Source: Tistrella mobilis
Lineage (GTDB): Bacteria; Pseudomonadota; Alphaproteobacteria; Tistrellales; Tistrellaceae
Assembly: GCF_039634785.1 (NCBI RefSeq)
Contig: NZ_JBBIAB010000003.1
Location: forward strand, 13,724 to 77,723
Reading direction: 5' to 3'
Length of the DNA: 64,000 nt
Below are positions 20,158-64,000 of the stretch, piece by piece (position 1 is the stretch's first letter; each line of letters opens with the position of its first letter). The position numbers were made by a program, and so were the translations under genes. The notes under the pieces are model-generated. The model made no database searches. It saw only the letters and a program-made list of their open reading frames with translations, and was not told the origin of the DNA.

Positions 20158-20484
20158 CGGCTGGACCTCCTTGCTGTGACCTGCATGCGACGGCCGCGAA
20201 CGAAACCGATACGTTGACGACCGCCCGACCCTCGCGCCCGACGGATTCCGGGCGACGTGGCCTTTGAACTCTAACATAATCGCTCGCCGGCCGGATGAAA
20301 GAGGGCAAAATTCCCGTCTCCGGAAATGAGGCCCGTCTCCGGAAAGGGAGCCCTGCCCCTTCGGCATTCCAGGCTGCATTCAGCTGCGGATCATTCCGTC
20401 CGCCCGCCAGCATCACCGCACCAATACCGGCCAGCGCGGCAATCCTGCCGCGCCACGGCCGGCACGACCGGGACCGAAAGCCAG

Positions 20485-21615: not shown

Positions 21616-21636
21616 TCGCGGAGAGGACAGAGCCTT

Positions 21637-27251: not shown

Positions 27252-27497
27252 GCGCGGCCGGGTCTCCGGAAAAGCTGAGCGGAAGAATGGGAGGCAGGCG
27301 AAATCGGGTCGCGAGACGCCCGACGCAGACATGCGTCATCGGTCACGAAGGTTGAAGGAAGGGATCAGGGCGATGGGGAGGTGCGGACGGAAACCGCTCT
27401 TCCCGGTATATGGCGCAGCCCTTGACGGTTCAAGAACCTCACCCGACTTTACCGGTCAGTCTGCCCCGCCGCGCGCGCCCCGAAGGCCTCCCTCCCC

Positions 27498-27929: not shown

Positions 27930-28066
27930 CCGGCCGCCGCGGCCCGCATGTCACCGACCTCTCCAAGCCATTGAAACCTCCCGTCCCTCCGGATCCGGGG
28001 ATGGCGGCGCAGATCTGTGCCGCGACCCGGGTGCGGCGGCACGGGCCCCCTATGGAGACCGGTTAG

Positions 28067-30403
28067 ATGCGCCTGTCGCGCTGGCTGATCCTGACCTATG
28101 CGCTGATCATTCTGGTGGGGCTGTCCGCCGCCCTGCCCAACCTGCTCACCCCCGGCCAGAGGGCGGCACTGCCCGGCTGGCTGCCGTCGAAACCCGTCAC
28201 CCTCGGCCTCGATCTCCGCGGCGGGTCGCAGCTGGTGCTGGAGGTCGACGCCTCCGCCCTGCTCAACGATCCCAGGCTGACCGAGGCGGAGCGCGCCGAA
28301 CGGCTGAATGCCGCCCTGACCCAGAGCCTCGAAATCGTCCGCACGCGCATCGACCAGATCGGCGTCGCCGAACCCTCGGTCCAGCGGGTCGGCGACGACC
28401 GGATCATGGTCCAGCTGCCCGGCGTGCAGGATCCGGCCCGGATCCGCACCCTGCTCGGCAGCACGGCGAAGCTCGGCTTCCATATGCTGGCCGATCCGCC
28501 GGCCCCCGGAGCCCGCCCGGCACCCGGCACCCTGCTGCTGCCCATGCAGGACGAACGCGACGGCAGCGGCGCGCCGCGAAAGCTGGCGGTTCAGGCACAG
28601 CCCGCGCTCGACGGCGACCGGCTGGCCGATGCCCATGCCGGCTTCGATCCACGCAGTGGCGAGCCGGTGGTCAATTTCCGCTTCGACGAGGCCGGCGCCC
28701 GGCGCTTCGCCGAGATCACGACGCAGAATGTCGGCCGCCCCTTCGCCATCGTGCTCGACGGTCGGATCCTGAGCGCCCCGGTGATCCGCGAGCCGATCAC
28801 CGGCGGCGCGGGCCAGATCAGCGGCCGGTTCTCGGTGGCCGAGGCCGGCGTGCTTTCGGCCCTGCTCCGTGCCGGCGCCCTGCCGGCCCCGCTCAGGGTG
28901 ATCGAGGAACGCAGCGTCGGCCCCGATCTGGGCGGAGACGCGATCCGTGCCGGCATCATTGCCGGCCTGGCCGGCTTCGCGCTGGTCTGCGGCTTCATGG
29001 TGGTGCTCTATCGCGGCTGGGGGATGATCGCGAACCTGGCCCTGCTGCTCAACGTCGCCCTCACCCTGGGCGCGCTCTCGGCGCTGGGTGCCACCCTCAC
29101 TCTGCCAGGTATCGCCGGCATCATTCTGGGGCTGGGACTTGCGGTCGATGCCAATGTGCTGATCAACGAGCGCATCCGGGAAGAGACCCGCCGCGGCCGC
29201 GCGGCACGGGCCGCACTCGATGCCGGGTTCAAGCGGGCCTATGCGACCATCGTCGATTCCAACGTCACCAGCCTGATCGCCACCCTGCTGCTGTTCCAGT
29301 TCGGCAGCGGCCCGGTGCGCGGCTTCGCCGTCACCATGGCGCTCGGCATCCTGATCTCGATGTTCACCGCGGTCACCGTGGTCAGGATCGTCATGACCCG
29401 GATTCTGGAACGGCGCGGCGCGCTCCGCTCCTCCACGGCCAGGCTGGAGATCGAACCGCTGATCCGGCTGATGCCGAAAGGCGACACCCGGATCCGCTTC
29501 ATGCGCGCCCGCTTTGCCGGCATTGCGGTCTCGGCCGCGCTGTCGCTCGCCTCGATCGGGCTGTTCGTCTCGCCCGGGCTCAATTACGGCGTCGACTTCA
29601 AGGGCGGCATCCAGATCGAGGCCGCAACCCATGCCGATCCGGGCCGCCTGCGCGACCGGCTGGACGGGCTGGGGTTGGGAGAGATCACCCTCCAGCAGAC
29701 CGGCAGCGACGGTGTCCTGGTCCGGGTGGCGCGTCAGCCGGGCGATGATGCCGCACAGACCATCGCGGTCGAAAGGCTCAAGGCGGCGATCCGGGATGTC
29801 GACCCCGCCGCCGGCATCGAGCGGGTCGATGTGGTGGGGGCCAGGGTCAGCGGCGAACTTGCCACCGCCGGCGTGCTGGCGGTGGTGCTCGCCGGCCTCG
29901 CCATGATGGTCTACATCTGGTGGCGCTTCGAATGGCCCTTTGCGGTGGGGGCCATCGCGACGCTGGTGCTCGACATCACCAAGACGATCGGCTTCTTCGC
30001 CCTTACCGGCATCGACTTCAACCTGACCGCCATCGCCGCCCTGTTGACCCTGATCGGCTATTCGGTCAACGACAAGGTCGTGGTCTACGACCGGATGCGC
30101 GAGAACCTGCGCCTGCATCGCACGCTGTCGCTGCGCGAGATGATCGATCTTTCGATCAATCAGACACTGACCCGCAGCCTCTACACCTCGGCGACCGCCT
30201 TCCTCGCCATGCTGCCGCTGGCGATCTGGGGCGGCAGCGCGGTGGAGAGTTTCGCGGTCCCGATGGTGTTCGGCATCGTGGTCGCGGCCTCGTCCTCGGT
30301 GTTCATCGCCGCCCCCATCCTGCTGTTCCTGGGAGAGCCGATGCGCCGGCGCAGCCGGTCGGCCCTGACGGCGGAGGGGTCAGCGACCGCAACCACCGGG
30401 TGA
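28067..30403 (+). CDS. secDF: Fused SecD/SecF protein-export membrane protein (SecDF)
   Basis: SecD part: GLDLRGGSQLVLEVD and the periplasmic head. SecF part: IRFMRARFAGIAVSAALSLASIGLF...GVDFKGGIQIEA. 778 aa in a single ORF. Confidence 0.85.
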   Translation: MRLSRWLILTYALIILVGLSAALPNLLTPGQRAALPGWLPSKPVTLGLDLRGGSQLVLEVDASALLNDPRLTEAERAERLNAALTQSLEIVRTRIDQIGVAEPSVQRVGDDRIMVQLPGVQDPARIRTLLGSTAKLGFHMLADPPAPGARPAPGTLLLPMQDERDGSGAPRKLAVQAQPALDGDRLADAHAGFDPRSGEPVVNFRFDEAGARRFAEITTQNVGRPFAIVLDGRILSAPVIREPITGGAGQISGRFSVAEAGVLSALLRAGALPAPLRVIEERSVGPDLGGDAIRAGIIAGLAGFALVCGFMVVLYRGWGMIANLALLLNVALTLGALSALGATLTLPGIAGIILGLGLAVDANVLINERIREETRRGRAARAALDAGFKRAYATIVDSNVTSLIATLLLFQFGSGPVRGFAVTMALGILISMFTAVTVVRIVMTRILERRGALRSSTARLEIEPLIRLMPKGDTRIRFMRARFAGIAVSAALSLASIGLFVSPGLNYGVDFKGGIQIEAATHADPGRLRDRLDGLGLGEITLQQTGSDGVLVRVARQPGDDAAQTIAVERLKAAIRDVDPAAGIERVDVVGARVSGELATAGVLAVVLAGLAMMVYIWWRFEWPFAVGAIATLVLDITKTIGFFALTGIDFNLTAIAALLTLIGYSVNDKVVVYDRMRENLRLHRTLSLREMIDLSINQTLTRSLYTSATAFLAMLPLAIWGGSAVESFAVPMVFGIVVAASSSVFIAAPILLFLGEPMRRRSRSALTAEGSATATTG

Positions 30404-30485
30404 CAGGTCATCCCTCCTGAGGTATAGCGGTCGCATCCGGCCCGGATGCGGCCGCCCATGCCGACGACACCGAAGGAGGGGTTTC

Positions 30486-31271
30486 ATGCAGCCCACCGCC
30501 TCGCGCTGGGTCCAGCCCGGCCAGGATCGCTGGCTCACCGGTCCCGCCGGCCGAAGCGCCGCGCCCTGGCGGCTGCTCTGCATCCCCCATGCCGGCGGCG
30601 GCGCCAGCGCCTTCCGCCCCTGGGAGGGGTTCACCGGCCCGGATGTCGAGCTTCTGGTCGCCCAGCTGCCGGGCCGCGAAAGCCGTTTTCCCGAACCGGC
30701 GCTCGACCGGGTGGCACCGGTGGTCGACGGGCTGGCCACCGCCCTCGGCCGTCTTGCACCCAAGCCGACCCTGATCTTCGGACACAGCATGGGTGCGATG
30801 ATCGGCTATGAACTGGCCGCCCGGCTGGTGGGGGAGGCCTCGCCCCATGCGCCGCGCACGCTGATCGTCTCGGGCCGCACCGCCCCCGGCTCATCCAGCA
30901 CGCTGGGCGATCTGCTCGGGCTGGACGATGCCGGCTTCGCGGATGCGCTTGCCGCCCGGTATGACGGCATCCCGGCCGCCCTGCTCGCCGATCGCGAATT
31001 GATGGCCGTGTTCCTGCCGACCCTCAGGGCCGATTTCCGGATGGTCGCGGAATATCGCCCGGATCCTGCCGCCTGCCCGCGCCTGCCCTGCCCGATCCTG
31101 GCGCTGGGCGGGGCCGACGACATCCATGCCGCCCCCGAACGGCTGGCCGCCTGGCAGGGTTTCACCACCGCCGGCTTCATGCGCGAGATCTTCCCGGGCG
31201 GGCATTTCTATCTGGCGGCCGATCCCGCCCGGGTGGTTGCGCGCGTGCTGGCCGCGCGCGGCATGGTCTGA
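30486..31271 (+). CDS. Type II thioesterase (NRPS/PKS editing thioesterase, alpha/beta hydrolase)
   Basis: GHSMGAMIGYELA nucleophile elbow, about 260 aa. Strong Shine-Dalgarno GAAGGAGGGG. Located inside the NRPS island. Confidence 0.85.
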   Translation: MQPTASRWVQPGQDRWLTGPAGRSAAPWRLLCIPHAGGGASAFRPWEGFTGPDVELLVAQLPGRESRFPEPALDRVAPVVDGLATALGRLAPKPTLIFGHSMGAMIGYELAARLVGEASPHAPRTLIVSGRTAPGSSSTLGDLLGLDDAGFADALAARYDGIPAALLADRELMAVFLPTLRADFRMVAEYRPDPAACPRLPCPILALGGADDIHAAPERLAAWQGFTTAGFMREIFPGGHFYLAADPARVVARVLAARGMV

Positions 31272-31274
31272 GGC

Positions 31275-32726
31275 TCAGCCCCCCGCGCCCGCGACCCTGG
31301 CGCCGCCCACGGGCGGGGCGGTTTCAGGAACGACGCCATAGGGCCCGAACCCCGCCGGCCCATAGGGCGTGGTCACGGCACCCGTGCCGCCGCCGATGCC
31401 CAGCCACCGGCTCAGCTGTTCCAGGGTCACCGGCTCACCCGGCAGGAAGCCCTGGCGCACGGCGGTGGGCGCCGGCTGGGGCGAGGCAGGCTGCACCGGG
31501 GCCGCCGGCGCCGTCGGATGCTCGGGCGTGGTGGTTTCCGGCACCATGGCCCGGCCGACCGAGGCGGTGCCGGCAGGCGCGCCTTCGACGACCGCCTCGC
31601 TCTCGCCACTATCCATGCGCGGCCCTGATTTCGGCCCGCCGGCCGGCGCGGGCCGAGAGCCCGTCTGGTTGAGGGGCTCCGACCCCACCGGCCGGATCTC
31701 GGCCGTGCCCGCATCCACGTCGCCCAGGATGACCGGCTGGCCGGCACCGCCATCGGCAGCCTGGGGCCCGCCCGTAGCGCCGGACGTCGTCGCCGCGCGG
31801 GCGCCATTGCTGTCGATGCCACCCAGGATCAGCGGCATGCCGCCCGAATCCTTGTTGCCGATCACCACCACCTTGGCATTGGTCGACTGGGCCAGCTGCA
31901 CCGAGGCATTGATGCCGAGCCAGGTGAGATAATCCGGAATCTCCGAGGCACCGACCCGGTCGAACAGCATGCGGATACCTTCACCTTCGATCCGCTTGCG
32001 TTCGGCTTCCTTCTGCTCGGTCGCCAGGCGGTAATCATATTCCAGCTGACGCTGATACTGCTCGACCTTGCGTTCGATCGCCTGGGCGACGCGCTCGGGC
32101 AGATGGATCGCCTTGATCAGCACGTCCTGCAGCTCGATCAGGTCGAAACCGGGCTGGCTGTAATAGTTGCCGCGCAGGAAATTCGCCTTCACGCCCTCGT
32201 AGATCTCGTTCTGCACGATGGTACGCAGGTTCGAGTAAAAATCCTCGGCGGTGTACTGCGAGATGCGCGCCCGGGCGACCGATCCGACCTCGGGAATGAT
32301 GATCTTGTGCAGGTATTCCGGGCCGACATTCTTGTGCAGGATACCGACATACTGCTCGTTCACCCGGTAGCGGAACGAGATGGTGGTGGCGACCGTCAGG
32401 CCGTCTGCGGTGATCGCATCATAGGTCTGGGTCACGGTCTGGAAGCGGACGTCATAGATCTCCAGCCGGTCCCAGGGCCAGATCACCTGCAACCCTTCAC
32501 CCGTCGGGCTGTCGACATCGGTCCCGCTGAAGCGGTGCCAGACGACGCCGGCATGACCGGCCGGCACGGTGATGAACATCGCCGGCCAGAACAGGATGAT
32601 CAGCGCGCCGGCGATCAGCACCGACAGGGTCAGCGACCAGAGATGGCGGCGCAGCCAGCCGCCGATCCGGCCGAGAGGTCCGGGACGCTCCGGCTCGTCG
32701 GTCATGTCCATATCGGCGACCGTCAT
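31275..32726 (-). CDS. SPFH/Band-7 (prohibitin/HflC-like) domain membrane protein with a long Pro/Gly/Ala-rich C-terminal tail
   Basis: N-terminal TM helix (LWSLTLSVLIAGALIILFW). SPFH core (GHAGVVWHRFSGT...YEGVKANFL). Coiled-coil EQYQRQLEYDYRLATEQKEAERKR. Start ATG 32724-32726 forms an ATGA overlap with the upstream ABC exporter stop and has GGGAGG 7 nt upstream. Confidence 0.8.
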   Translation of the reverse strand: MTVADMDMTDEPERPGPLGRIGGWLRRHLWSLTLSVLIAGALIILFWPAMFITVPAGHAGVVWHRFSGTDVDSPTGEGLQVIWPWDRLEIYDVRFQTVTQTYDAITADGLTVATTISFRYRVNEQYVGILHKNVGPEYLHKIIIPEVGSVARARISQYTAEDFYSNLRTIVQNEIYEGVKANFLRGNYYSQPGFDLIELQDVLIKAIHLPERVAQAIERKVEQYQRQLEYDYRLATEQKEAERKRIEGEGIRMLFDRVGASEIPDYLTWLGINASVQLAQSTNAKVVVIGNKDSGGMPLILGGIDSNGARAATTSGATGGPQAADGGAGQPVILGDVDAGTAEIRPVGSEPLNQTGSRPAPAGGPKSGPRMDSGESEAVVEGAPAGTASVGRAMVPETTTPEHPTAPAAPVQPASPQPAPTAVRQGFLPGEPVTLEQLSRWLGIGGGTGAVTTPYGPAGFGPYGVVPETAPPVGGARVAGAGG

Positions 32727-34411
32727 GCCGGATCCTCCCAATCTTCGCCTTCAGTACGGGCTTCGTCTTCAGTACGGGCGTCGCCGTTGTCGACGATCCT
32801 GACCACGCGCCCCTCCTCCATCGCCACCCGACGGTCGGCGACGTCGAAATAGCGGTCGTCATGGGTGATCGCGATCACCGTCTTGCCACGCGCCTTCAGC
32901 ATCGGCAGCAGTTCCCGATAGAATTTGCGCCGGAACTGCGGGTCCTGATCGGCAGCCCATTCGTCGAGCACCAGCACCGGCCGGTCCTCGATCATCGACA
33001 CCATCAGCGCCAGGCGCTTCCGCTGGCCGCTCGACAGGTCGATCGTATCGAACAGGTCGCCCTGAAGCGCCACCTTGCCGCCCATCTCCATCAGCTTCAC
33101 CAGCGCCTCGAATTCGGCCGCATCCGGCGGCTCGATCCCGTAAAGGCGGCGGAACAGATGGTAGTCGGCATAGATCGCCGAGAACAGCGAACGATAGGTT
33201 TCGAACGAACCGCGGGTGACCGGTTTCCCATCCAGCCGGATCATGCCCCTGTCGGCATGATAGAGGCCGAGCAGCAGGCGGATCAGGGTCGACTTGCCCG
33301 AGCCGTTGCCGCCGGTCACGAAGATCAGCTCGCCGGCCCGGATGGTCAGATCCACCGGCCCCACCCCGAATGACACGCCGCCCACCGGCGCATAGGTGAA
33401 GGCCACCCCGTCCAGCCGGATCTCCTCGAACGAGGTCAGGGTCTGGGGCGGGGTCTCGGCCACCTCGGACGCGGCGGCGATCTCGCGCAGCACGCGGTCC
33501 ATGCGCATCAGGTTCTCGGCGGCGGCATTGGCCATCGCCATCATCGGCACGGCCTGGATGACCATGCTGAGCGGGCCGACGATGAACAGGATCGCGGTGG
33601 CGGTGCGGACCACCGCCTCGGGCTCGGTATTGCCGAAGCTCGGCACCACGAAGACCACCACGCCCAGCAGCAGGAAGATCATCGTCTGGCCGAAAACGAA
33701 TTCATTGCCCGACTTCACCTGCATGTCGGCCTTGGCATCGCGCGCCTCGGTGGACAGCCGTGCCATGTCGCGCAGCAGGGCATCGCGGCGCGAGGACGAC
33801 AGCTTCACTTCCTTGAAGCCGTCGAGCACGTCGCGCATGCTCTCGAAAACCTGGTTTTCCTTCATCATCGCAGCCGGATACCGGTTGCGCAGATCGATCA
33901 GCCGCCGGACGACCAGAAACACCGCGATGGCGATGAAACCGGTGCTGAGCCAGAAGGCGGTGCGATCGGTGATGAAGATGTAGATCATCGCCAGCCCGAC
34001 CAGGATCACCGACTGGGCGGCGATCACCAGCAGGTTGGCGGCCTGGGAAATCGTCTGGGTGTCGCGGATGACGCTGGCCAGGATATTGCCGCGCCCCACC
34101 TGTTCCAGGGGCAGCAGATCGGATCGCGAAACCGCGTCGATCAGGCTGCTACGCTGGCGATGGATGATCTCCTCCACCTCGGTGGCGGTGATCTGCATCA
34201 TCCGGCGCTGGCTGAGCACATAGACCGCGACCACGATCGCAAACAGCGCCACCGTCCGCAGGTCGAGCGCATCGTCGTAGAGCCCGGCGGAATTGTTGAT
34301 GATCGCCATCACCAGCGCGTTGCTGACACCGGCGAGCGCGGCGATGAACAGGAGGGTCGCCGGCTTCGCCGTCAGGTCGCGGCGAATAAGCTCGATCAGG
34401 GGCATCGTCAC
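32723..34411 (-). CDS. Fused TMD-NBD ABC exporter of the cyclic-peptide/siderophore exporter type (SyrD/PvdE/YojI-like)
   Basis: N-terminal 6-TM ABC_membrane domain. Walker A GGNGSGKST. Signature LSSGQRKRLAL. Walker B VLVLDE. 562 aa. Confidence 0.85.
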   Translation of the reverse strand: MTMPLIELIRRDLTAKPATLLFIAALAGVSNALVMAIINNSAGLYDDALDLRTVALFAIVVAVYVLSQRRMMQITATEVEEIIHRQRSSLIDAVSRSDLLPLEQVGRGNILASVIRDTQTISQAANLLVIAAQSVILVGLAMIYIFITDRTAFWLSTGFIAIAVFLVVRRLIDLRNRYPAAMMKENQVFESMRDVLDGFKEVKLSSSRRDALLRDMARLSTEARDAKADMQVKSGNEFVFGQTMIFLLLGVVVFVVPSFGNTEPEAVVRTATAILFIVGPLSMVIQAVPMMAMANAAAENLMRMDRVLREIAAASEVAETPPQTLTSFEEIRLDGVAFTYAPVGGVSFGVGPVDLTIRAGELIFVTGGNGSGKSTLIRLLLGLYHADRGMIRLDGKPVTRGSFETYRSLFSAIYADYHLFRRLYGIEPPDAAEFEALVKLMEMGGKVALQGDLFDTIDLSSGQRKRLALMVSMIEDRPVLVLDEWAADQDPQFRRKFYRELLPMLKARGKTVIAITHDDRYFDVADRRVAMEEGRVVRIVDNGDARTEDEARTEGEDWEDPA

Positions 34412-34520
34412 CGGGCGGAACTCGGTCTTGCTCGGGAAAATCCTGCCCGGGAGATGGCCCGGGGAAGCGGGTCGCGGTGCATCGGGTCAGGCCCCGTTCC
34501 GCGATACGGTCTTCCGGCGC

Positions 34521-34733
34521 TCAGCGCCGCCGCGCCTTGCGCGCGACCACCGGAGGAGCCGGCTCGCGCGGGCGGGTCGCATACAGCACCAGCAGCACCA
34601 CGAAGGGGGTCAGCAGGATGGACAGCAGGAAGGAGACGACGAAGCCCGGTTTGCGGCCCGCGCCACAGAGGCCGACCATCACCGACATGACGACGTAGAT
34701 GATGGGGAGCATGAGGCCGGCAATCGGCGGCAT
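34521..34733 (-). CDS. Hypothetical small membrane protein (70 aa, 2 TM helices)
   Basis: MPPIAGLMLPIIYVVMSVMVGLCGAGRKPGFVVSFLLSILLTPFVVLLVLYA, then a basic tail. Confidence 0.35.
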   Translation of the reverse strand: MPPIAGLMLPIIYVVMSVMVGLCGAGRKPGFVVSFLLSILLTPFVVLLVLYATRPREPAPPVVARKARRR

Positions 34734-34873
34734 CGCGGTGATCCTCTCGGTGCGCAGGTCCAGAGACCGGGTTCGACGTGGTCAGGCGACGGGCGCCGCC
34801 CGCCCCGCGCCCCGCAGATGCGGTGACGGAAGCGGGCGGGCGACCTGTCGGATGGTCATCCGTTGAACGGCAG

Positions 34874-35464
34874 TCACGACGCCTTGGTGGCGGCGGGCTT
34901 GCCCTCGGCCTTCGCTGCGTCGGCCGCGGCCTTCGCCGCTTCGGTGGTCGACGGCGCATCGGCCTTGGCGGCCTCGAATTCGGCCTTGAAGTGCTCGCGC
35001 AGCTGATCCGGGTTGAAGTTCAGCAGCGTGCCGCCGGTCTCGAAGTGCTGGATGAACACCCGGCCGATGGCGTAGGTCACGGCATAGGAAACGGTGGGCG
35101 AAACCGCGAGACCGATGACGGTACCGACCACCGGCACCGCCTTCACCAGGCTGGCGACGCCACCGACCAGGCCGGCCGCGGCGGTGCCGGGGACGACGGT
35201 GTTGGCCAGCGAGCCGATGATCGCCTTGGCGCGGTTCTCGCTGAACGGCACGTCATAGAGCTTCGACAGCTCGTAGATCATCTTCACCTGCACGCCCGTG
35301 ACCAGGGCCACGTCGAGCAGGGGGAAAGGCAGCAGGCCGGCGCCCGCGCCCCAGAGCGCGCAACGCTTGACCAGCGAACGCGCATCGTCGGCGCGCAGCT
35401 CAGGGGTGTACTCTTCGGCGGGAGCAGCCGTCACTTCGGCGGTGGACATCGATCGCATCCTCAT
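34874..35464 (-). CDS. Conserved hypothetical protein, DUF697-like
   Basis: The segment LPFPLLDVALVTGVQVKMIYELSKLYDVPFSENRAKAIIGSLANT resembles the DUF697 core. Gly/Ala-rich C-terminus. The start is ambiguous (M at 35464 or MSTAEV at 35448). Confidence 0.45.
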   Translation of the reverse strand: MRMRSMSTAEVTAAPAEEYTPELRADDARSLVKRCALWGAGAGLLPFPLLDVALVTGVQVKMIYELSKLYDVPFSENRAKAIIGSLANTVVPGTAAAGLVGGVASLVKAVPVVGTVIGLAVSPTVSYAVTYAIGRVFIQHFETGGTLLNFNPDQLREHFKAEFEAAKADAPSTTEAAKAAADAAKAEGKPAATKAS

Positions 35465-35735
35465 CCAGGGGCCCGGACCAGTCTTGCCGGGATAGGCCAG
35501 TCTTGCCGGGATCGTTCGGTGGGTCGGAAGGGGGAAGGGACGACAGCCCGTCGTGGGGCAGTACCGTGGAGGGACAGTGCCGTGCGGGCAAGGTCACCCG
35601 TACCATACTGATGATCCACGCAGAGCGTGCCATTCTTCCTCTGAAACGCCAACGGAATTCCCGGAGACATCCGGTTCCGCAGGCGGTACGCCATCTGGCC
35701 GGCATCCCGTGGCGGGGTTTTCACACCCGGCGCGG

Positions 35736-38700
35736 TCATGATGCCGTCCGATCCTTCAATCTCTGCTGAAGCAGTGCATCGGGCGGTGGCGGTTCCACCA
35801 GCACCTTGCGCCGCTTCCGCGAAATCAGAGTATAAACCGCAGGTATGACGAACAGCGACACGAACGTACCAAAGGTCATGCCGCCGACGATCACCCAGCC
35901 CAGTTCGCGGCGCCCGCCGGCGCCGGCGCCGGTGGCGATGGCCAGCGGCACAGCGCCCAGCACGGTGGCGATCGTGGTCATGATGATCGGCCGGAGCCGG
36001 GTTTCGGCCGCCTCAATCACCGCCTCGGTCCGGTCGCGGCCGGCATCGCGCAGCTGATTGGCGAATTCGGTGATCAGGATGCCGTGCTTGGCGATCAGGC
36101 CGATCAGGGTCACGAAGCCGATGAAGCTGTAGATGTTCAGCCCGCCGCCGGTCTCGCTCAGGGTGAAGATCGCACCGGCCACCGCCAGCGGCGCGATGGC
36201 CAGCACGATCACCGGGTCGCGGAAGCTTTCGAACTGGGCGCTCAGCATGAAGAAGATGAACACCAGCGCCAGCAGCAGCACCAGACCGGCCGAGCCGCTT
36301 TCCTGCGAAGCCTTGGCGGCGTCGCCGGCCAGCACCGGCTTCATGCCCGGCTGCAGCACCTCGCCCATCAGCGGCATCAGCGCCTGGAAGGCTTCGGCCA
36401 GTTGATGACCGGGGGCGACCGCTGCCGTAAAGGTGGCCGAGCGCAGGCCGTCGGTGTGCTCCAGCGTGTCGGCGCCGACGGTGCGGCGCAGCTCCACGAA
36501 ATCGCGCAGCGGCAGCGGATCGACGCTCTTGCCGCGGATTTCCAGCGTGTTGATCGTCTCCACCTGGCCCCGCCATTCGGGCGGCAGGTCGATGATCACC
36601 TTGTAGAGTTCGCCGCGGTTGGTGAAGGTGGAAACCGGGTTGCCGCCCAGCGCCGCCTGCAGCGTGTCGCCCAGCGCGGTTGCCGTCACCCCCTGCTCGC
36701 CCGCGCCGTCGCGGTCCAGCGTCACCTCCAGCTGCGGCCGGTCCAGCTCCAGGCTGGAGGCCGGGTCCGCGATCGACGGCAGCTCGCGGGCCTTCGTCAC
36801 CAGCCGGTCCATGGTCCGGGCCAGATCGTCATAGCTGCCGGTGGTGGTGATCATCAGCTGGATCGGCCGCGAACTGCCGCCGCCACCCAGCGGGCTGACC
36901 TGCAGAACGTCGATCCGCAGGCCCTGGATCGCCGCCAGCAGCGGCTTCAGCGCATCACCGATTTCGGTGGCGCTGCGGCTGCGTTCCCCCCAGGGCTTCA
37001 GCAGCAGATAGGCATTGGCGGCGGACGGCTTGGGGCTGCCGAGCAGGGTGAGGACGCCGGTCGCCTCGGGCACGGTTTTCAGCACCGCCTCCACCCGGGC
37101 GATCTGATCCTGAAGATGATCGAGGGTCGAGGTGCCGCGCGCCTCGATATCGAACAGGATATAGCCCTGATCCTCGACCGGCGCGAAGGCGAAGTTCAGC
37201 CGGCTGGTCGCCGAGAAGCCGACATAGAGGGCGGCGATCACCCCCAGCAGCACCAGCCAGCGCCGGTGCAGCAGCCAGCCCAGCAGCCGGGCATAGCCGC
37301 GGGCCAGCGCCTCGGTCGCCCGTTCCACCCTGCGGGCATAGCCGTGTTCGGCCCGGGCACCGATCAGCCGCGCGCACATCATCGGCGACAGCGTGCGGGC
37401 GATGAAGCCCGAAATCAGCACGGCCCCCGCCAGAGTGAAGGCGAATTCCCGGAACAGCATGCCGATCTGGCCGCCGACCAGGCCGATGGGCGCGAAGACC
37501 GCCGCCAGGGTCAACGTGGTCGCGATCACCGCAAAGCCGATCTCGCGGCTGCCCAGGAAGGAGGCGGTGAAGGCATCCAGCCCGTCATCGACATGGCGCT
37601 GGACGTTTTCGATCTCGACGATCGCATCGTCGACCACCAGGCCGATCGCCAGCACCACCGCCATCAGGGTCAGGGTGTTGATGCTGAAATCCATCGCCGC
37701 CATCAGCCCCAGCGTGCCCAAGAGCGACAGCGGGATGGTGACCAGCGCGATGGCGCTGGAACGCAGCGAGCCCAGGAAGATGACCACCACACCCAGCACC
37801 AGGGCGACGGCGATCGCGATCGTCTCGAACACCTCGTGCACCGAGGCGTCGATATAGATCGTGCTGTCGAAGGCGATCTCGAGCCGGAAACCGCCGGGCA
37901 GGCCGGCCTGCAGGGCCGGCAGCTCGGCCTTCACCAGTTTCGCGATGTCGAGTGGATTGGCGGTGCTCTGCGGCACGATGCCGACGGCCACCACATCGCG
38001 GCCGTTGAAGCGGATGGCGTTGTCCAGGCTTTCCGGCCCCACCTCCGCCCGGCCCAGATCGGAAATGCGGACCAGATAGCCCGGCTCGGCACGCACCACC
38101 AGCCGGTCGAATTCGGCCGCGGTCGACAGCGCCCCTTCCACCACCACATCGGTGCGGTCGGTGCGGGTACGGATTTCGCCGCCGGGCACGTCGGCATTCT
38201 GGGCGACGATCGCCGCCCGGACATCGCCAATGGTGATGCCATAGGACGCAAGGCGGATCGGGTCGAGCACGATGCGGATGGCATAGCGCCGCTCGCCCAG
38301 CAGCGTCGCCTGGGCCACGCCGTCCAGCGCCGCGATCCGCGGCAGCAGCAGGCGGTTGGCGGTGTCGCTGATCTCCAGCGCATCATGGTTGTCGCTCGCC
38401 ACCGTCAGGAACATGATCGGCTGGGCGTCGAGCGATTGCTGCGCCACCACCGGCGCCCGCGCCGCCTGGGGCAGCGTGTCGGTCAGCGGCGCCACCTTGT
38501 TGCGCACCTCGTTGGCGAGCAGCAGCCCGTCCAGCCCCAGGCGGAACTGGATCTGGACCAGCGACATGCCGGCGCGGCTTTGAGAGGTGATCTGCTGCAC
38601 GCCCGAAATGCCCGAGACCGCCTGTTCGATCGGCGTGGTCAGCTGGCGTTCGACCTGTTCGGCCGCAGCCCCGGGATAGATGGTGGTGATGGTGACATAG

Positions 38701-38828
38701 GGGAAATCCATCGCCGGCAGCTGGCGGATGGACAGATGGTTGAGCGCGTAAAGCCCCAGCAGCGCCAGGATCAGGTTGATCACGATCGCGAAGACCGGCC
38801 GGCGGATGCAGAGGTCGGAGATCAGCAT
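35736..38828 (-). CDS. RND efflux transporter permease (HAE1 family), pump 2, paralogous to the pump at 21637-24735
   Basis: 1030 aa. N-terminus MLISDLCIRRPVFAIVINLILALLGL. 12 TM helices with large periplasmic loops. Confidence 0.9.
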   Translation of the reverse strand: MLISDLCIRRPVFAIVINLILALLGLYALNHLSIRQLPAMDFPYVTITTIYPGAAAEQVERQLTTPIEQAVSGISGVQQITSQSRAGMSLVQIQFRLGLDGLLLANEVRNKVAPLTDTLPQAARAPVVAQQSLDAQPIMFLTVASDNHDALEISDTANRLLLPRIAALDGVAQATLLGERRYAIRIVLDPIRLASYGITIGDVRAAIVAQNADVPGGEIRTRTDRTDVVVEGALSTAAEFDRLVVRAEPGYLVRISDLGRAEVGPESLDNAIRFNGRDVVAVGIVPQSTANPLDIAKLVKAELPALQAGLPGGFRLEIAFDSTIYIDASVHEVFETIAIAVALVLGVVVIFLGSLRSSAIALVTIPLSLLGTLGLMAAMDFSINTLTLMAVVLAIGLVVDDAIVEIENVQRHVDDGLDAFTASFLGSREIGFAVIATTLTLAAVFAPIGLVGGQIGMLFREFAFTLAGAVLISGFIARTLSPMMCARLIGARAEHGYARRVERATEALARGYARLLGWLLHRRWLVLLGVIAALYVGFSATSRLNFAFAPVEDQGYILFDIEARGTSTLDHLQDQIARVEAVLKTVPEATGVLTLLGSPKPSAANAYLLLKPWGERSRSATEIGDALKPLLAAIQGLRIDVLQVSPLGGGGSSRPIQLMITTTGSYDDLARTMDRLVTKARELPSIADPASSLELDRPQLEVTLDRDGAGEQGVTATALGDTLQAALGGNPVSTFTNRGELYKVIIDLPPEWRGQVETINTLEIRGKSVDPLPLRDFVELRRTVGADTLEHTDGLRSATFTAAVAPGHQLAEAFQALMPLMGEVLQPGMKPVLAGDAAKASQESGSAGLVLLLALVFIFFMLSAQFESFRDPVIVLAIAPLAVAGAIFTLSETGGGLNIYSFIGFVTLIGLIAKHGILITEFANQLRDAGRDRTEAVIEAAETRLRPIIMTTIATVLGAVPLAIATGAGAGGRRELGWVIVGGMTFGTFVSLFVIPAVYTLISRKRRKVLVEPPPPDALLQQRLKDRTAS

Positions 38829-39961
38829 CAGCCGCCCCCGCCCGCCGGTACCGGATCGATCCGCATGCCGTCCTCGACCTTGAACTGGCCTTCCACGATC
38901 ACCGGCGTACCGGCATCGAGCCCGGTCACGATCTCGACCGTGCCGCCATCGCCATCGGCACCGATGGTCACCGGGCGGCGGACGGCCTTGCCATTGTCGG
39001 CCACATAGACGTAGTCGCCCGAGAGCGACGACATCACCGCCGGCCGCGGCACCAGTACGGCGCCCTCGCGGCTGTCGAGCAGCAGATCGACATTGACGAA
39101 CAGGCCCGGATGGATCGGCCGGCCGCCGATTTCGGCCTGGGTCAGCTCGGCGCGGAGCAGGATGCTGCGGCTGTCGGGTTCGATCGAGGGATCGACCAGC
39201 GTCACCCGCCCCTGGATGGGGTCGGGGCCCAGGCTCTGGGACGAGAGGGTGACCGGCAGGCCGGTCTTCAGCCGGGGCAGAAGTTTTTCCGACACCCGGA
39301 AGGTCACCCGCAGGCGGGAGCGGTCCTCGACCGTCAGCGCCTCTTCACCGGGAGAGAGAAAGCTGCCGACCTCGATCTTGCGGGTGCCGGCGACGCCGTC
39401 GATGGGTGCGCGCAGGGTGAGCAGGTCGAGCTGGGTCTGCTTCACCTCCAGCGCCGCCCGCGAGGCCGCGACCGCCGCCCGCGACTGGTCGATATCGGCG
39501 CGGGATTTGGTGCCCCGGCGGCCCAGTTCTTCGTCGCGCTTCAGGTTCTGGGCGTCCAGCGCCGCGGTCGCCCGGGCGCTTGCAAGCTCGGCCTCGGCCA
39601 CGCGCTGGTCCAGCCGGACCAGGGGCTGGCCCTGCTTCACCGTCTCCCCCTCGCGGAACAGCACCGCGACCACATGGCCGCCGGATTGCGGCGACAGCAC
39701 GATGCGCGCCACCGGTTCCACCGTGCCGAAGGTGATCAGGCGATCATAGGCCGTGCCGTGACCGGCCTTGGCCACGCCCACCTTCATCGCCGGCGCCGCC
39801 GGGGGCTGCTGGGGCGGCGTGGCGGCGGTTCCGGCCACGGCCGGCCCTTTCGTCGCCCCCGGCGCAGGCACGCCAGGCACGAGACCGGCCTGCCACGCCC
39901 AGCCGGCGGCGCCGGCCAAGCCTGCAACGATCACCAGCGTGATCCAGCCTCTCGCCCTCAT
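38828..39961 (-). CDS. RND efflux system periplasmic adaptor (membrane fusion protein), partner of pump 2
   Basis: Start MRARGWITLVIVAGL (ATG 39959-39961) with GGGGAG 4 nt upstream. HlyD-family motifs. Its stop overlaps the pump start by 1 bp (ATGA). Confidence 0.8.
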   Translation of the reverse strand: MRARGWITLVIVAGLAGAAGWAWQAGLVPGVPAPGATKGPAVAGTAATPPQQPPAAPAMKVGVAKAGHGTAYDRLITFGTVEPVARIVLSPQSGGHVVAVLFREGETVKQGQPLVRLDQRVAEAELASARATAALDAQNLKRDEELGRRGTKSRADIDQSRAAVAASRAALEVKQTQLDLLTLRAPIDGVAGTRKIEVGSFLSPGEEALTVEDRSRLRVTFRVSEKLLPRLKTGLPVTLSSQSLGPDPIQGRVTLVDPSIEPDSRSILLRAELTQAEIGGRPIHPGLFVNVDLLLDSREGAVLVPRPAVMSSLSGDYVYVADNGKAVRRPVTIGADGDGGTVEIVTGLDAGTPVIVEGQFKVEDGMRIDPVPAGGGG

Positions 39962-40301
39962 CCCACTCCCCTGCTGCGGCGCAACACACCGCGAACGGTC
40001 ACTGGTCCGGGATGGAGGGTGACACGACATGGCATCACCTGTCTACTGGACCGCAACCAAAAATCCACTTGCACGGGAATATCTCCCGGCCTACCAATGG
40101 GCGCAACTTCATGGGCACCGAAACTGTGGCGGAATGCACCGTGCCGGATCCCATGGTCATCGATAGCAGGATCTGCGGCTGCCTTCACCTCTGCGCCATC
40201 CGGCGATCAACAACCATCGACCGGAACACCCCCTCGCAGGTTGCCGCATCGCCAGAGCCGCGCCTATCATCGCTCGATCACCAGCGGAATGAAGACTGCC
40301 G

Positions 40302-46696
<6,395 letters not shown>

Positions 46697-46700
<4 letters not shown>

Positions 46701-49700
46701 GCACGCTCCCGCCCGATACGCCTGCCGGCCGCAGCCTGCTTGACCGCATGGCCGCCCTCAGCCCCGCCCAACGCGCGGCGCTGAAGCAGCGTCTGGCGGC
46801 CCGCGACGGGGCTCCGGCAGCACCTGCGACGACCGTCGCTGCGGAGACATGGCCCGAGGTCGGCGCACAGGCCCCGCTTTCCCCCGCCCAGGCGCGCTTC
46901 CTGTTCCTGGCCGAAGACGAGGCCGGCGATGCCCAGGCCATGTCGCTGATGCTGCGCATCGACGGGCCGCTCGATGCCGATCGGCTGGCGGCGGCGGTCT
47001 CGGACGTCGTCACCGCCCAGGCGGCGCTGCGCTGCCGGATCCTGAACACCGCCCGGGGCCCGGTGCAGGAGGTGCTGCCCGCCCCCGCACCGGCCGAGGC
47101 ATTGCCGGTCGTCCATGTCTGGCCGGCGGAGGATGCCGACGCCGCGCTGGTTGCGGCGGGCCTCACCCTCGGCCGCGAGGGCTTCGATCTCGCTGCCGGC
47201 CCGCTTGCCCGTTTCCGCCTGTTCCGCTGTGCGCCGGATCTGCACGGGCTGGGTGTGGTGCTGCATCACATCGTGGCCGATGGCTGGTCGGCCGGGCTTT
47301 GCCTCGCCCTGATTCAGGACGCCTATGCCCAGCGGATGGCCGGCCGGCAACCGGCGCCGCCGCCTGCGCGTTCCGCCTTCGACGAAGCCCGGCGTCTGGC
47401 CGATCTGGCAGGCGGGGAAGCGCATCGCCGCAGGCTAGACCAATGGGTCGACCGTCTGGCCGGTGCACCGCGGCGGCTGATGCTGGATGGCGGGCCGGGA
47501 GAGCCGGGCCCCGCCCGGCACCTGCCCTTCCGGATCAGCCCCGCGCGGACGGAAGCCCTGGCCGGCCTCAGCCGGCGTGTGCCCGGCGCCACGGTCTTCA
47601 CCGCCCTGCTCGCCGCCTGGGGCGCGGTGCTCGGCCGGTTCACCGATCAGGGCGACACCACGATCGCGGTCGCGGTCGCCAACCGCCCCGATCCGGCGCT
47701 CGACCGCACGATCGGCGAATTCGCCGATCTGGTGGTGCTGCGGCTCGCCACCGCCGACGATCCGGGCGTGGATACCCTGCTCACCCGCACCCGCGATGCG
47801 GTGATCGACGCCCAGGCCCATGACGGCATCACCCTCGCCCAGATCATGGAAGCGATCGACCGCCGCCATGGCGCCGGGGCCCGGCCGGCGATCGATGCCG
47901 CCTTCAGCTTCCTGAACGTGCCGGCACCTGCGGCCGACGCCCACGGCCTGCGCTTCCGGCCGCTGCCGCTGCCGGCCGACCGGCTGGATTTCGCGCTCTA
48001 TCTGACGGCCCATGAAGATCCCGCCGGCGGGCTGGCCGGATCGCTGGGCTTCCGGCCCGACATGGTACCGCCGGCGCTCGCCGCCGCACTCGCCGACGCT
48101 TTCGGGCTGGTCGTCGACGCCATCAGCCTGGACGGCAGCCTGCCGGTCTCGCGCCTGGCCCTGACGACCGAACCCGCCGGCGACGACCTGCCGGTGGTGA
48201 CCGGCCCCGATGGCCGGCTGCATCTGGCGCCCGTGGGTCTGCCGGGCCGGCTGCTGCCCGGCCCCGACCGCGCGCGGCGGTTGTCCGACGGCCGGCTGCG
48301 GCTGCTGCCCGGCATCGACGGCGCACTGCGCCGCGGCACCGCACGGGTTCATCCGGCCGCGGTGGAAGCGGCGCTGCGCCGCCTGCCCGGCGTGCTCGAT
48401 GCGGCGGTCTGGACCCGCATCGGCACCGATCACGAGGCCCGTCTGGTCGCAGCGGTCGCGACCCGCATTCCGTCGATCGGGCCTGCGGGTTTCGCGGCCG
48501 GGCTTGTGGACGCGCTGCCGCCGCTGCTCCGCCCGGATGCCGTCCTGCCGGTTCACGCCATCCCGCGCGATGCCGAGGGCCGGCCCGACCGCGCCGCCCT
48601 CGACCGGCTGGCCGTGCCCGCGGCCCCGCACCGGGCGGATCGGGCGGCCCTGGTCTGGGTGGAGGCGCCGGCCCCTGCCCTGCAGCACCTGCCGCTCGAC
48701 AGCCTGCCCGGCACCGCCAGAGCGGCGGATGACGCGGACTGGCTGGTGCCGGGCGACCCGCCGCCGCCGGCACTGGCCGATGGCGGACCGCTGGTTCTGC
48801 CCGCCGATGCCCCGCGCACGCTGGATGCCGCCCTGATCGCAACCGCCGCCGGCCATCCGGGGCGCGGCATTCTGCATGACGACGGCCGCGGATCGCCGCA
48901 GCTTCAGGATTATGCCGGGCTGCTGGCGGCGGCCCGCCGCACGCTCGGCCGGCTTCAGGCGGCAGGGCTGCGCCCGGGCGACCGGGCGGTGCTGGTCTTC
49001 GCCGATCTCTCCCGCCATATCGAGGCACTCTGGGCCTGCATCCTGGGCGGCCTCCGGCCGGTGACGGTCGCCGTGCCCCATGCCGCCGGCGATGCCGTCG
49101 CGGCCAAGCTTTCGGGCACCCATGCGCATCTGGGCGCCCCGCCGGTGCTGACCGATGCCGACACCCGCGATCATCTGACCCGGATCCTGCCCCAGGCCCG
49201 GATCCTGGTCGCCGCCCCCGCCGCCGACACGCCCGAGGGCATTCTCCATCCGGCCGCCCCGGAGGATGTCGCCTTCATCCAGCTCTCCTCGGGCTCGACC
49301 GGTGTGCCCAAATGCATCCAGGTCACCCATGGCGGGGTGATCGCCCATGTCTTCGGCCAGGTCGACGCCTGGGGGCACGGCCCCGACGACGTGTCGATGA
49401 ACTGGCTGCCCTTCGACCATGTCGTGCCGATGCTGACCTGCCATCTGAAGGACACGGTGCTCGGCCGCCAGCAGATCCAGGCCCCCACCGCTGCGGTGCT
49501 GGACCGGCCGCTGCTCTGGCTCGACCTGATCGAACGCCACCGGGTGACGCTGGCCTGGGCACCCAATTTCGCCTTTCGCCTGGTGGCCGACGCCTTGTCG
49601 CGTGAGACGGGGCGGCGGCGCGACCTGTCTTCGATCCGCTGGTTCATCAATGCGGGCGAACAGGTGACGGCACCGGTGGTCGCCGATGCGCTGGCGGCCA

Positions 49701-52101
49701 TGGTGCCGCATGGCCTGCGCCCCGGTGCCGTGCGCAATGAATTCGGCATGGCCGAACTCTGCACGGTGATGACCGGCGGCATCGACTTCACCGCAGACGG
49801 CGCCTGCCGCCATGTCACCGCCGGATCGCTGACCGGCCGGCTGCGCGCCGCCACGGCCCCCGGCCCCGGCACGGTCAGCTTCGTCGATGCCGGCCGGCCG
49901 ATCCCCGGTGTCGCGATCCGCATCGCCGATCCCGACGGCGCCACCTGCCCGGAAGGCGTGATCGGCCGGCTTCAGGCGCGGGGTGCCGTCACCACCCCCG
50001 GCTATATCGACAACGCCGCCGCCAATGAAGCGGCCTTCGCCGATGCCGGCTGGTTCGACACCGGCGATCTGGGCTTCATCGCCGATGGCCGCCTGGTGCT
50101 GACCGGCCGGCTGAAAGAGATGATCGTCGTCCGCGGCGCCAATCACTATGCCCATGACGTCGAAGACGAGGCCGGCCGTGCGGCAGGGGTCGCCGCCACT
50201 TTCGTCGCCGCCACCGCCGTCGACCGCCCCGATCTCGGCACCGAAGGGATCGCCGTTTTCTACGTGCCCGAGGCTTGTCTGGCCGAGATCGGTGCCGCCG
50301 ATGATGCCGGCCCGCGCCGCGCCGAAATCGCCGAGATCACCGCCCGTCTTGCCCGCCGGCTCGGCATTGCGCCCTCGGTGGTGGTGCCGCTGGACCGGGC
50401 CGATTTCCCCAAGACCACCAGCGGCAAGATCCAGCGCACCGCCCTGCGCCGCCGGCTGGAAGCGGGCGATTTCGATGCCCGACTTGCCACCCTCGGCCTC
50501 GCCCCGGGCCGCGATCGGGGGCCGGGACTGCCCGACTGGTTCCTTGAGCCGGGGGATGCCCCCGCCCCGCCGCTTGCCGGCGCCCCGCGGCTTGGGCTGA
50601 TCGAAGACCGCCTGCCGCGTGGCATGGCGCTGGCCGATGCCATCGACCGCCGGCGCGCGCTGCTGGCCCGGCTGGCCGGCCAGGATGCCGAGCTGGTGCA
50701 GGATGCCGAACTGGTCACCGTGACACCCGCCGGCGACGTCACCGCCGCCGCGGTCGATGCCTTCACCGCCGCCGCGGCCGAGGACCTGCCCGGCCTGCAT
50801 CTGCGCCGGATCATCGTGGCCGACGGTACCCCCGAAGCGGTGGTCACCGACGAGATCGCCCGCGGCACCCTGCCGGTGGTCCACCTTACGGCCGGCGGCC
50901 GCACCCGGCCGGTGCTGCGCCCGGCGCGGCTCGCCACCGACATCCCTGCCCAGGGTATCGCCCCGGGGCAGTCCTGGCTGGTCACCGGCGGCCATGGCGG
51001 GCTCGGCCGGGCGCTGATCCGCCACCTGCTCGATCGGGGCGTGGCCTCCATTACCGTCATCGGCCGGCGCATGGCAACGATGGATGACCCGCGGGTGCAG
51101 GCCCTGTCGCTCGATCTTGCCGCCGCCGATGCCGGCGCGCGGCTTGCGGCCCTCGGCCGGTTCGACGGCATCGCCCATCTGGCCGGGCTCTATCGCGAGC
51201 GCCCGGCGGCCGAGGAAGACGGCAGGGCGGTGGCCGAGCTGGCGGCGCCCAAGACCGGCATGCTGCCGGCGCTTGCCCGCCTGCTGCGGGATGACGGGCT
51301 GCTGATCGCCTTCTCCTCCGTCGTGGCCCATCTGCCGGCGGCCGGCACCGCGGCCTATGCCGCCGCCAATGCGGCCCTCGAAGCCGAAGCCGCTGCGCTG
51401 CGCCGGCCCGGCGGGCCACGCCTCGTCACCATCGCCTGGACGAATTGGGAAGGGCCCGGCATGGGGGCGGCCGTCACCGGTGCCGCCGGCCTCGCCCGCG
51501 GCCGCGGCCTGCTGCCCATCCCGCCCGCCGACGGTCTGGCCAGCCTGGATGTCGTGCTGGCCGCCGGCCTCACCCGCGCGGTGATCGGCGCCGATCGCCG
51601 CCATCCGATGATCGCGGCCCGCTGCATCGATCCGGAACTGTCCCCCGCCCGCGCCCGCGCGGTGCTGCTGGTGGCAGGTGAAACGGCTGCCCCGGCGACG
51701 CTCCGCCGGGCCGAAGACGTCTTCGGCACCCCTGCCGGGCCCGGGCTCCGCCATGTCGATCATCTGCCGGAAAGCGACGACGCCCTTGCGGCCCTTGCCG
51801 GCGGCGGCGACACCCTTGCGGCCGTCGCCCCCCGCACGCCGACCGAAACCGCCTTGGCCGCGATCTGGTCGGAACTGCTGCCGGCACCGGTCGCCGGCAT
51901 CGATGCCGATTTCTTCGCCGCCGGCGGCCACAGCCTGCTCGCCGCCCGGATCGTCACCCGGATCAACGACCATTTCGGCCTGCACCTCACCCCGGCCGCG
52001 CTGTTCGATGCCCCGACCATCCGCGCGCTGGCGGCGCATGTCGACGGCATTGCGGCGCCGGGCCCGGCCGGAGCCGACGAGGATTTCGAGGAGGGCGCCC
52101 T

Positions 52102-52105
<4 letters not shown>
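46697..52105 (+). CDS. Hybrid NRPS module: C - (vestigial A-domain C-terminal fragment) - acyl-AMP-ligase (FAAL/AL-type) adenylation domain - ketoreductase - T
   Basis: ATGA overlap with the upstream NRPS. C domain HHIVADGWS (47263-47289). ANL domain with FIQLSSGSTGVPKCIQVTHGGV, NWLPFDHVVPM, EFGMAEL, GRLKEMIVVRGANHYAHDVE, PKTTSGKIQR. KR Rossmann WLVTGGHGGLG and SSVVAHLPAAGTAAYAAANAAL. T domain FFAAGGHSLLAARI. Confidence 0.9.

Positions 52106-64000
<11,895 letters not shown>

Follow-up and report, generated by a model that had tools for sequence, protein, structure and literature searches.

A module of the keto-acid depsipeptide kind, very probably DidB of the didemnin assembly line, in Tistrella mobilis DNA

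Which acid is activated by a nonribosomal peptide synthetase (NRPS) module whose adenylating domain matches neither a canonical adenylation (A) domain nor a defined family of fatty acyl-AMP ligases (FAALs), and what is the piece of a further A domain that the same module carries? The question is raised by an open reading frame (ORF) at 46697–52105 on the forward strand of a 64,000-nucleotide stretch of Tistrella mobilis DNA (contig NZ_JBBIAB010000003.1, positions 13,724 to 77,723), which we refer to as the window and in whose coordinates all nucleotide positions are given. According to the ORF list and its translation, the frame encodes a protein of 1802 amino acids (aa), and its third-position GC content of 0.85 is like that of the real genes of the window (window GC 70–74%). 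A preliminary description, made from the letters alone, had read the protein as a condensation (C) domain, a vestigial A fragment, a FAAL-type domain of the ANL superfamily, a ketoreductase (KR) and a thiolation (T) domain. This layout was borne out by Pfam and blastp, and all of the quoted motifs were found in the translation at the residues listed below. The ORF is very probably the orthologue of didB and encodes the third module of the Tistrella didemnin hybrid NRPS/polyketide synthase (PKS) line, a keto-acid depsipeptide module of the StsA/CesA/CrpD-M2 kind. The parts of the gene, in which Asub denotes the C-terminal subdomain of an A domain and KAL a 2-keto acid AMP ligase, are:

46697..52105, + strand: very probable didB orthologue, 1802 aa, with the parts C, Asub remnant, KAL, KR, C-terminal part of a pseudo-Asub and T in this order
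46868..48172, + strand: condensation domain, aa 58–492 (Pfam PF00668, 147 bits)
48194..48616, + strand: degenerate Asub remnant (partial Ax), ~aa 500–640, with traces of motifs A7–A10; presumed N-terminal contributor to the pseudo-Asub
48809..50479, + strand: 2-keto acid AMP ligase (KAL, or keto-acid A domain), aa 705–1261, core with its own Asub (NCBIfam span)
50480..50974, + strand: linker and presumed structural (N-terminal) KR subdomain, aa 1262–1426; the equivalent region of relatives hits PF21394
50975..51616, + strand: catalytic KR subdomain (KRc), aa 1427 to ~1640 (Pfam PF08659, 71.3 bits at aa 1427–1585)
51617..51832, + strand: post-KR segment, ~aa 1641–1712, presumed C-terminal part of the split pseudo-Asub; boundaries approximate
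51851..52042, + strand: thiolation (carrier) domain, aa 1719–1782 (Pfam PP-binding, 62.1 bits)

The ORF is assigned to didB of another Tistrella strain because its identity to plasmid pTM3, the literature and the order of the modules fit together. In a megablast search against plasmids, the single full-length match was plasmid pTM3 of T. mobilis KA081020-065 (NC_017958.1, 681309–686699), which covers 100% of the ORF at 95.4% nucleotide identity, and the protein is 95.2% identical to its pTM3 orthologue over the full length. The same neighbours follow in the same order, as positions 26600–63999 of the window are collinear with 37.2 kb of pTM3 at 95.1% identity; the compared pTM3 locus begins at the point that matches 26600, which is thus no breakpoint. 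The PLSDB record of pTM3 carries no annotation, and orthology is based on sequence together with the naming in the literature. There, the didemnin cluster didA–didJ is located in strain KA081020-065, and installation of Gln-Gln-Pyr is ascribed to DidA and DidB (PMC9964501). The didB gene is described as C-A-KR-T, and its deletion abolishes didemnins (bioRxiv 10.1101/2023.04.24.537896). DidA consists of two Gln modules with N-terminal acylation, the primary products being didemnins X and Y (PMC5577590), which are N-acyl-polyglutamine ester derivatives that are cleaved to didemnin B by the esterase DidK (PMC10811503). On-line reduction of a keto acid to a hydroxy acid, which had been predicted for this module, fits the published C-A-KR-T layout and the Gln-Gln-Pyr assignment. 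The two flanking NRPS genes complete the argument:

40302..46700, + strand: didA orthologue, C-A-T-C-A-T by Pfam; two Gln modules, with a C domain at the N-terminus
52102..64000, + strand: downstream NRPS gene of the didC–didD region, in Pfam a TubC_N docking domain, C-A-T, C-A(MT)-T-E and C-A..., running past the end of the window

The resulting order, C-A-T-C-A-T, then DidB, then dock-C-A-T-C-A(MT)-T-E-C-A, fits acyl-Gln-Gln, Lac, Pro, N-Me-D-Leu and Thr. The gene, its product and the module type have already been published, so the finding is not new.

The adenylating domain matched Pfam AMP-binding at aa 716–1103 (140 bits) and contains the motifs FIQLSSGSTGVPKCIQVTHGGV (aa 860–881), NWLPFDHVVPM (aa 902–912) and PKTTSGKIQR (aa 1238–1247). 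With the amino-acid adenylation model TIGR01733 it scored 110.9 bits, under the cut-off of 317.4. The best-scoring named NCBIfam models were of the FAAL/FACL type (PRK07768 with 267 bits, PRK09192 with 229 and MbtM with 196), but no FAAL model reached its curated cut-off (PRK09192, 228.7 versus 600 bits; PRK05850, 147.9 versus 775; FadD32, 142 versus 975). Judged by these scores, the domain is not a canonical A domain, as the preliminary description had also held, and it belongs to no defined FAAL family either. A phmmer search of the PDB placed StsA, a homologue of cereulide synthetase (PMC13643306), at the top, with its A-KR structure (6ULW, 351 bits, E-value 1e-103) and its keto-acid A domain alone (6ULX/6ULY, 344 bits). 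McyG scored 289 bits, FAALs (3PBK, 7R7E-G, 3KXW and FadD32) ~115–156 bits and the A domain of linear gramicidin synthase (LgrA) ~65 bits. By this ranking, and by that of Foldseek described below, the domain groups with validated keto-acid A domains and not with amino-acid A domains or FAALs. KALs are regarded as an ANL clade of their own, apart from fatty acyl ligases and A domains (PMC13643306).

The residues of StsA that have been tied to keto-acid selection are Ile306, Gly414 and Met415 (PMC7923214), and in HMMER alignments they correspond to Val909, Gly1017 and Met1018 of DidB. At the first of these positions, the Asp of amino-acid A domains (Asp235) is replaced by a hydrophobic residue (Ile306 in StsA, Val219 in Dol15D), and in the Gly-Met pair (Gly414-Met415 in StsA) a backbone carbonyl contacts the 2-keto group. 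The key positions of the DidB domain are the A3 motif SSGSTGVPK, DH-V909 at the Asp235 position, G1017-M1018 and the A10 motif SGK1244IQR; Gly1017-Met1018 lies in the stretch EFGMAE, which aligns with FGMSE of StsA, and the canonical A domains of the window read FD(A/V/F)S in the Asp235 region. Among 91 relatives, Asp-His-Val 907–909, Gly1017, Ala1019, Glu1020 and the A10 lysine Lys1244 are invariant, and Met1018 is found in 90 of the 91. From the literature on the product, the substrate would be pyruvate.

The KR is located between the adenylating and T domains and is intact. Its nucleotide-binding stretch WLVTGGHGGLG (aa 1427–1437) holds the NADPH motif TGGHGGLG, the catalytic region SSVVAHLPAAGTAAYAAANAAL spans aa 1540–1561, and the residues Lys1519, Ser1541, Tyr1554 and Asn1558 are present; the Lys, Ser and Tyr are kept in 86–91 of the 91 relatives, in which TGGxGxxG is also conserved. 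The earlier call of a KR followed by a T domain is thus upheld by the PF08659 match and by the catalytic residues, and a second HMMER domain aligns aa 1427–1786 with residues 911–1309 of 6ULW. A thioester-reductase reading of this short-chain dehydrogenase/reductase domain was rejected, as the KR model scored 71 bits versus 36 for Epimerase/NAD-binding and the domain precedes the T domain. The stereochemistry motifs of PKS-type KRs (LDD, or Trp) were looked for in the KR, and neither was found; they were not used, being defined for β-keto PKS KRs and not validated for α-keto NRPS KRs. The region ahead of the catalytic subdomain (aa 1262–1426) was modelled with a predicted local distance difference test score (pLDDT) of mostly 65–93, and PF21394 matches just before the KR in relatives (796–970 in P0009, 1300–1356 in P0012). 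No other part of DidB differs as much between the two Tistrella strains (88.5% identity, dN/dS 0.36), and in the present strain the region holds a short direct amino-acid repeat (QDAELVQDAELV).

The C domain has the active-site motif HHIVADGWS (aa 190–198, nt 47264–47290). It would make the ester between the acyl-polyglutamine chain and the lactyl hydroxyl, an assignment that is made because the ester bond is known from didemnins X and Y (PMC10811503) and that agrees with the ester-forming role predicted for it earlier. In the T domain, the motif GGHSLLAARI (aa 1743–1752) contains the phosphopantetheine-bearing Ser in GGHS (aa 1743–1746).

Between the C and KAL domains lies the vestigial A fragment of the preliminary description, which proved to be a genuine but degenerate Asub. 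With the Asub of the next downstream A domain it shares 37.6% identity over 141 aa (blastp E-value 1e-10), and with that of the first A domain of DidA 35% (blastp); Pfam AMP-binding_C matched at aa 556–628 with 20.7 bits, under the cut-off of 24.5. No part of an A-domain core (Acore) is left, and Arg629 stands in place of the A10 Lys; across the 91 relatives the most frequent residues at this position are R/E/A/Q/L, whereas the Gly, Asp and Leu beside it are kept. The remnant is visible in the consensus of the family alignment and also stands ahead of the KAL in relatives that lack a C domain, such as P0009 (AMP-binding_C at 26–99, AMP-binding at 210–606). Between the two Tistrella strains it is 97.2% identical, and it was modelled as a folded unit with pLDDT ~73–89. 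The segment that follows the KR contains an A10-like stretch, LPESDDALAAL (family consensus P....G..DR..L), and in blastp it gave no significant hit to a canonical Asub. Its presumed place in the pseudo-Asub comes from the HMMER alignment to 6ULW 911–1309 and the Foldseek alignment to the same structure, both of which include it.

The StsA structure comprises an intact A domain, an intact KR and a split pseudo-Asub that flanks them, and this pseudo-Asub is reported to be conserved in other keto-acid modules (PMC10510592). Four-domain C-KAL-KR-T modules likewise keep partial Ax-like regions with A6–A10 motifs, and they are proposed to have arisen when a KAL entered between C-Ax and KR-T and Ax then degenerated (PMC13643306). 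The A fragment of DidB matches this already known element, termed partial Ax or split pseudo-Asub (Alonzo 2020, as reviewed, and PNAS 2026). Neither the remnant nor the ~70 aa that follow the KR has catalytic function; both are left from an ancestral A domain that received the KAL-KR unit, and by analogy with StsA they most likely persist as a structural pseudo-Asub. In the solved structure of the cereulide type, pseudo-Asub pieces flank an intact A domain and an intact KR, and the A domain is not interrupted by a KR, so the earlier claim that the DidB arrangement differs from cereulide/valinomycin-type modules fails.

An AlphaFold2 model of aa 510–1709, built from a 49-sequence alignment, had a mean pLDDT of 84.1. 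When it was compared with the PDB by Foldseek, the four chains of 6ULW came first (E-values 6e-73 to 2e-70, 1121–1141 aligned columns), followed by 6ULX/6ULY, then by McyG and then by FAALs.

Several observations weigh against reading DidB as a keto-acid module with a pseudo-Asub. McyG, which is not a keto-acid enzyme, also has the Gly-Met motif (FGMTE), and DHV together with FGMAE occurs in relatives without a KR, so that these motifs appear to mark a wider clade and are supportive of keto-acid use but not diagnostic of it on their own. The global TM-score of the model to 6ULW is 0.43, with a root mean square deviation of ~18 Å over the full-length alignment, because domain orientations differ. 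The packing of the remnant and the post-KR segment into one pseudo-Asub is predicted from homology to 6ULW. The dN/dS of the remnant, 0.25 (0.23 for the KAL and 0.25 for KRc), rests on few substitutions, 9 synonymous and 5 non-synonymous.

About 20 relatives (P0078, P0080, P0090–P0094 and P0101–P0119) have a KAL-like domain with neither a KR nor an N-terminal C domain. The KAL-like domain is followed in them by T and C (~1150–1180 aa) or by T only (~700–750 aa), and they keep PxDHVVP (most of them), FGMAE and SGKIQR. These proteins may load 2-keto acids that are left unreduced, or else the motifs may mark a wider clade of ligases.

The likeness to FAALs that the preliminary description had put forward is real, and if the ANL domain were a true FAAL it would load a fatty or 3-oxo acid, which the KR would turn into a 3-hydroxyacyl unit in a lipo-initiation or branching module. 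This is extremely improbable. It draws on the NCBIfam ranking, on the place of FAALs as the next-best structural matches after StsA and McyG and on the spacing between motifs A5 and A7, which is 102 aa versus 84–90 aa in the canonical A domains of the window; the lengthening falls where FAALs have an insertion and matches FAAL structures (7R7F 317–451 and 3KXW 317–456, with query residues 9–137 and 5–137, respectively). The longer region is common to StsA, and McyG is without ~20 aa of it. All FAAL model scores are far under their cut-offs (e.g. 229 versus 600), no FAAL reached half the score of the StsA keto-acid A domain, the residues associated with recognition of keto acids are in place, and the known product has lactate and no fatty acid at this place. 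Free 3-oxo acids are, moreover, chemically unstable as substrates. The term FAAL-type is therefore imprecise, and KAL (or Ak) is the better name, given the 351 bits for StsA versus ~156 bits for FAALs, Val909 and the Gly-Met pair. Some depsipeptide synthetases load preformed hydroxy acids, and selection of a 2-keto acid cannot be told from that of a 2-hydroxy acid by sequence analysis, so the domain might instead activate free L-lactate directly, with a KR that is redundant or serves in proofreading only. We consider this very unlikely, as the Lys/Ser/Tyr residues and the NADPH motif of the KR are intact and conserved across the 91 relatives, and KRc has a dN/dS of 0.25. The cereulide and StsA systems select keto acids and then reduce them (PMC4455996; PMC10510592), and pyruvate labelling in the ClyF system supports pyruvate as the precursor of lactate (PMC7923214).

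The remnant might also be a functionless relic or spacer that plays no structural part. It lacks the Acore altogether and has lost the A10 Lys, its Pfam score is below the threshold, and no similarity to an Asub could be detected in the sequence of the post-KR segment. The remnant is nevertheless kept in relatives of both the initiation type (KAL-KR-T) and the elongation type (C-KAL-KR-T) from many phyla, with the Gly, Asp and Leu conserved. Its identity between the Tistrella strains and its dN/dS, which is like that of the catalytic domains, its modelling as a folded unit and the pseudo-Asub that the corresponding flanks form in StsA, reported to be conserved in other keto-acid modules (PMC10510592), likewise argue for a structural part, and a mere relic is unlikely. 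Beyond the static scaffold role proposed from the crystal of the StsA initiation module, the remnant, an almost whole Asub that is catalytically inactive and under purifying selection, may be an indispensable moving or docking element by which, in elongation-type keto-acid modules, the T domain is positioned among the C, KAL and KR domains, an idea that we advance tentatively and with some doubt. If it were true, DidB would be a genetically tractable system for the role of the remnant, markerless deletions in Tistrella having been reported.

For DidB as a keto-acid module, the following cycle can be proposed, in which pyruvate, the ester linkage and the need for didB are taken from the literature and the order of the steps is inferred. 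The KAL (aa 705–1261) would adenylate pyruvate and load it onto the T-domain Ser in GGHS. The KR (aa 1427 to ~1640) would then reduce pyruvyl-S-T to lactyl-S-T with NADPH. The C domain would take the acyl-(Gln)n chain from DidA, with the lactyl hydroxyl as the nucleophile, to give the ester of didemnins X and Y, and the next C domain, reached via the TubC-type docking domain, would condense the lactyl thioester with Pro.

The chemistry of the module was thus very probably predicted correctly from sequence alone, whereas the view that an AL-type domain is atypical here did not hold up, since more than 1000 relatives were found and, of modules of this kind, 337 with four domains and 125 with five have been counted (PMC13643306). 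A domain of this type is the usual activator of keto acids, and the layout of DidB is the normal one for modules that use them. It is easy to mistake a keto-acid module for a FAAL and a KR accompanied by a broken A domain, and some of the ligases in such modules are labelled CAL by antiSMASH. Once recognised, the KAL signature and the pseudo-Asub remnants prevent false calls of novelty, and the value of the present analysis is in annotation. DidB decides between the lactyl side chain of didemnin B and the pyruvyl side chain of plitidepsin, which makes the KR and the KAL sensible engineering targets. A plain knockout of the KR would be expected to stop the transfer of the chain and not to yield plitidepsin, because the ester to the polyglutamine prodrug arm needs the hydroxyl.

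The ATG of didB overlaps the stop codon of didA as ATGA (46697–46700), and the GTG start of the downstream gene overlaps the stop codon of didB as GTGA (52102–52105), which suggests translational coupling along the assembly line. At the C-terminus of DidB, no recognisable docking partner domain was found in Pfam, though the downstream protein starts with TubC_N. In the first A domain of DidA, the specificity positions were read by eye from the translation as DAWQFGLIDK, which we take to be the classical code for Gln. The two A domains of didA (41799–42936 and 44928–46077) cross-match each other's reference copies at ~75% nucleotide identity, which indicates a probable internal duplication of the Gln module.

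In the window, the frame of the next gene after didB runs without interruption for more than 3966 aa. The didC–didD region is thus a single open frame here, whereas in the reference of KA081020-065 the frame is broken inside a C domain. The site of the break corresponds to 56020–56067 of the window (in the ORF that starts at 52102) and lies around 29270–29380 of the reference locus. The reference frame ends with '...LDGFTAPNRSSTAPG...' and a stop, and the window reads 'LDGFTAPEPVFDRPRPAVQSYQGAL' at the same place. The published didC/didD boundary may therefore be a frameshift, real or due to a sequencing error, and not a natural module boundary.

Accessory genes near the did NRPS genes span positions 20326–40030 of the window:

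20326–24735, + strand: RND efflux pump with an HlyD-type adaptor, first of two
24689–25600, + strand: Sfp-type phosphopantetheinyl transferase (PPTase)
28067–30403, + strand: SecDF
30486–31271, + strand: type II thioesterase
31275–32741, − strand: SPFH/Band 7 protein
32723–34411, − strand: ABC transporter ATPase protein
34874–35464, − strand: DUF697 protein
35736–40030, − strand: RND efflux pump with an HlyD-type adaptor, second of two

Among known systems, DidB of KA081020-065 is the orthologue, 95.2% identical over the full length, with the same neighbours and gene order and the published C-A-KR-T layout; the present strain differs from it by ~5% nucleotide divergence. The closest solved structure, both for the ANL domain and for the segment from the remnant through the ANL domain to the KR, is module 1 of StsA (stratospherulide synthetase; 6ULW/6ULX/6ULY). 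Both proteins have an intact A domain, an intact KR, a T domain and flanking pieces, which in DidB are presumed to form a pseudo-Asub as they do in StsA, and both have a hydrophobic residue at the Asp235 position (I306 versus V909) and the Gly-Met motif. However, StsA module 1 is an initiation module with ~30 N-terminal residues in the pseudo-Asub, whereas DidB, an elongation module, has a C domain and a remnant of ~140 aa that covers A7–A10. StsA takes 2-ketoisocaproate, DidB is assigned pyruvate, and sequence identity between them is ~26–32%. FAALs (from E. coli and Legionella, FadD32 and that of olefin synthase) share the ANL fold and are the next-closest structures after StsA and McyG. Like the DidB KAL, they exceed canonical A domains in the length of the A5–A6 region, and their product is handed to a carrier protein and not to CoA. 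They differ from it in score, at ~156 bits versus the 351 bits for StsA, and in substrate, which for DidB would be pyruvate and not a fatty acid.

In ClyF, the chlorosphaerolactylate synthetase (C-A-KR-T-TE, with a terminal thioesterase, TE), labelling supports the conversion of pyruvate to a lactate unit that is esterified to an acyl chain, and the enzyme was analysed with the StsA residues I306/G414/M415, as was DidB here (PMC7923214). ClyF, likened to DidB by description, is cyanobacterial and terminal and has a fatty acyl donor, whereas the donor of DidB is peptidyl. A logic like that of DidB is also found in the four-domain C-KAL-KR-T module CrpD-M2 of cryptophycin and in the five-domain C-Ax-KAL-KR-T modules Dol15D-M2 and PyrG, in which a keto acid is activated by the embedded KAL and reduced by the KR, with ester formation by the C domain (PMC13643306). 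These modules, also likened by description, are mainly actinobacterial and cyanobacterial, and DidB is alphaproteobacterial; the word didemnin does not occur in PMC13643306. The partial Ax of the four-domain modules, which antiSMASH does not call (PMC13643306), is the vestigial A fragment of DidB. With no remnant of an Acore, DidB stands at the reduced end of the proposed Ax continuum.

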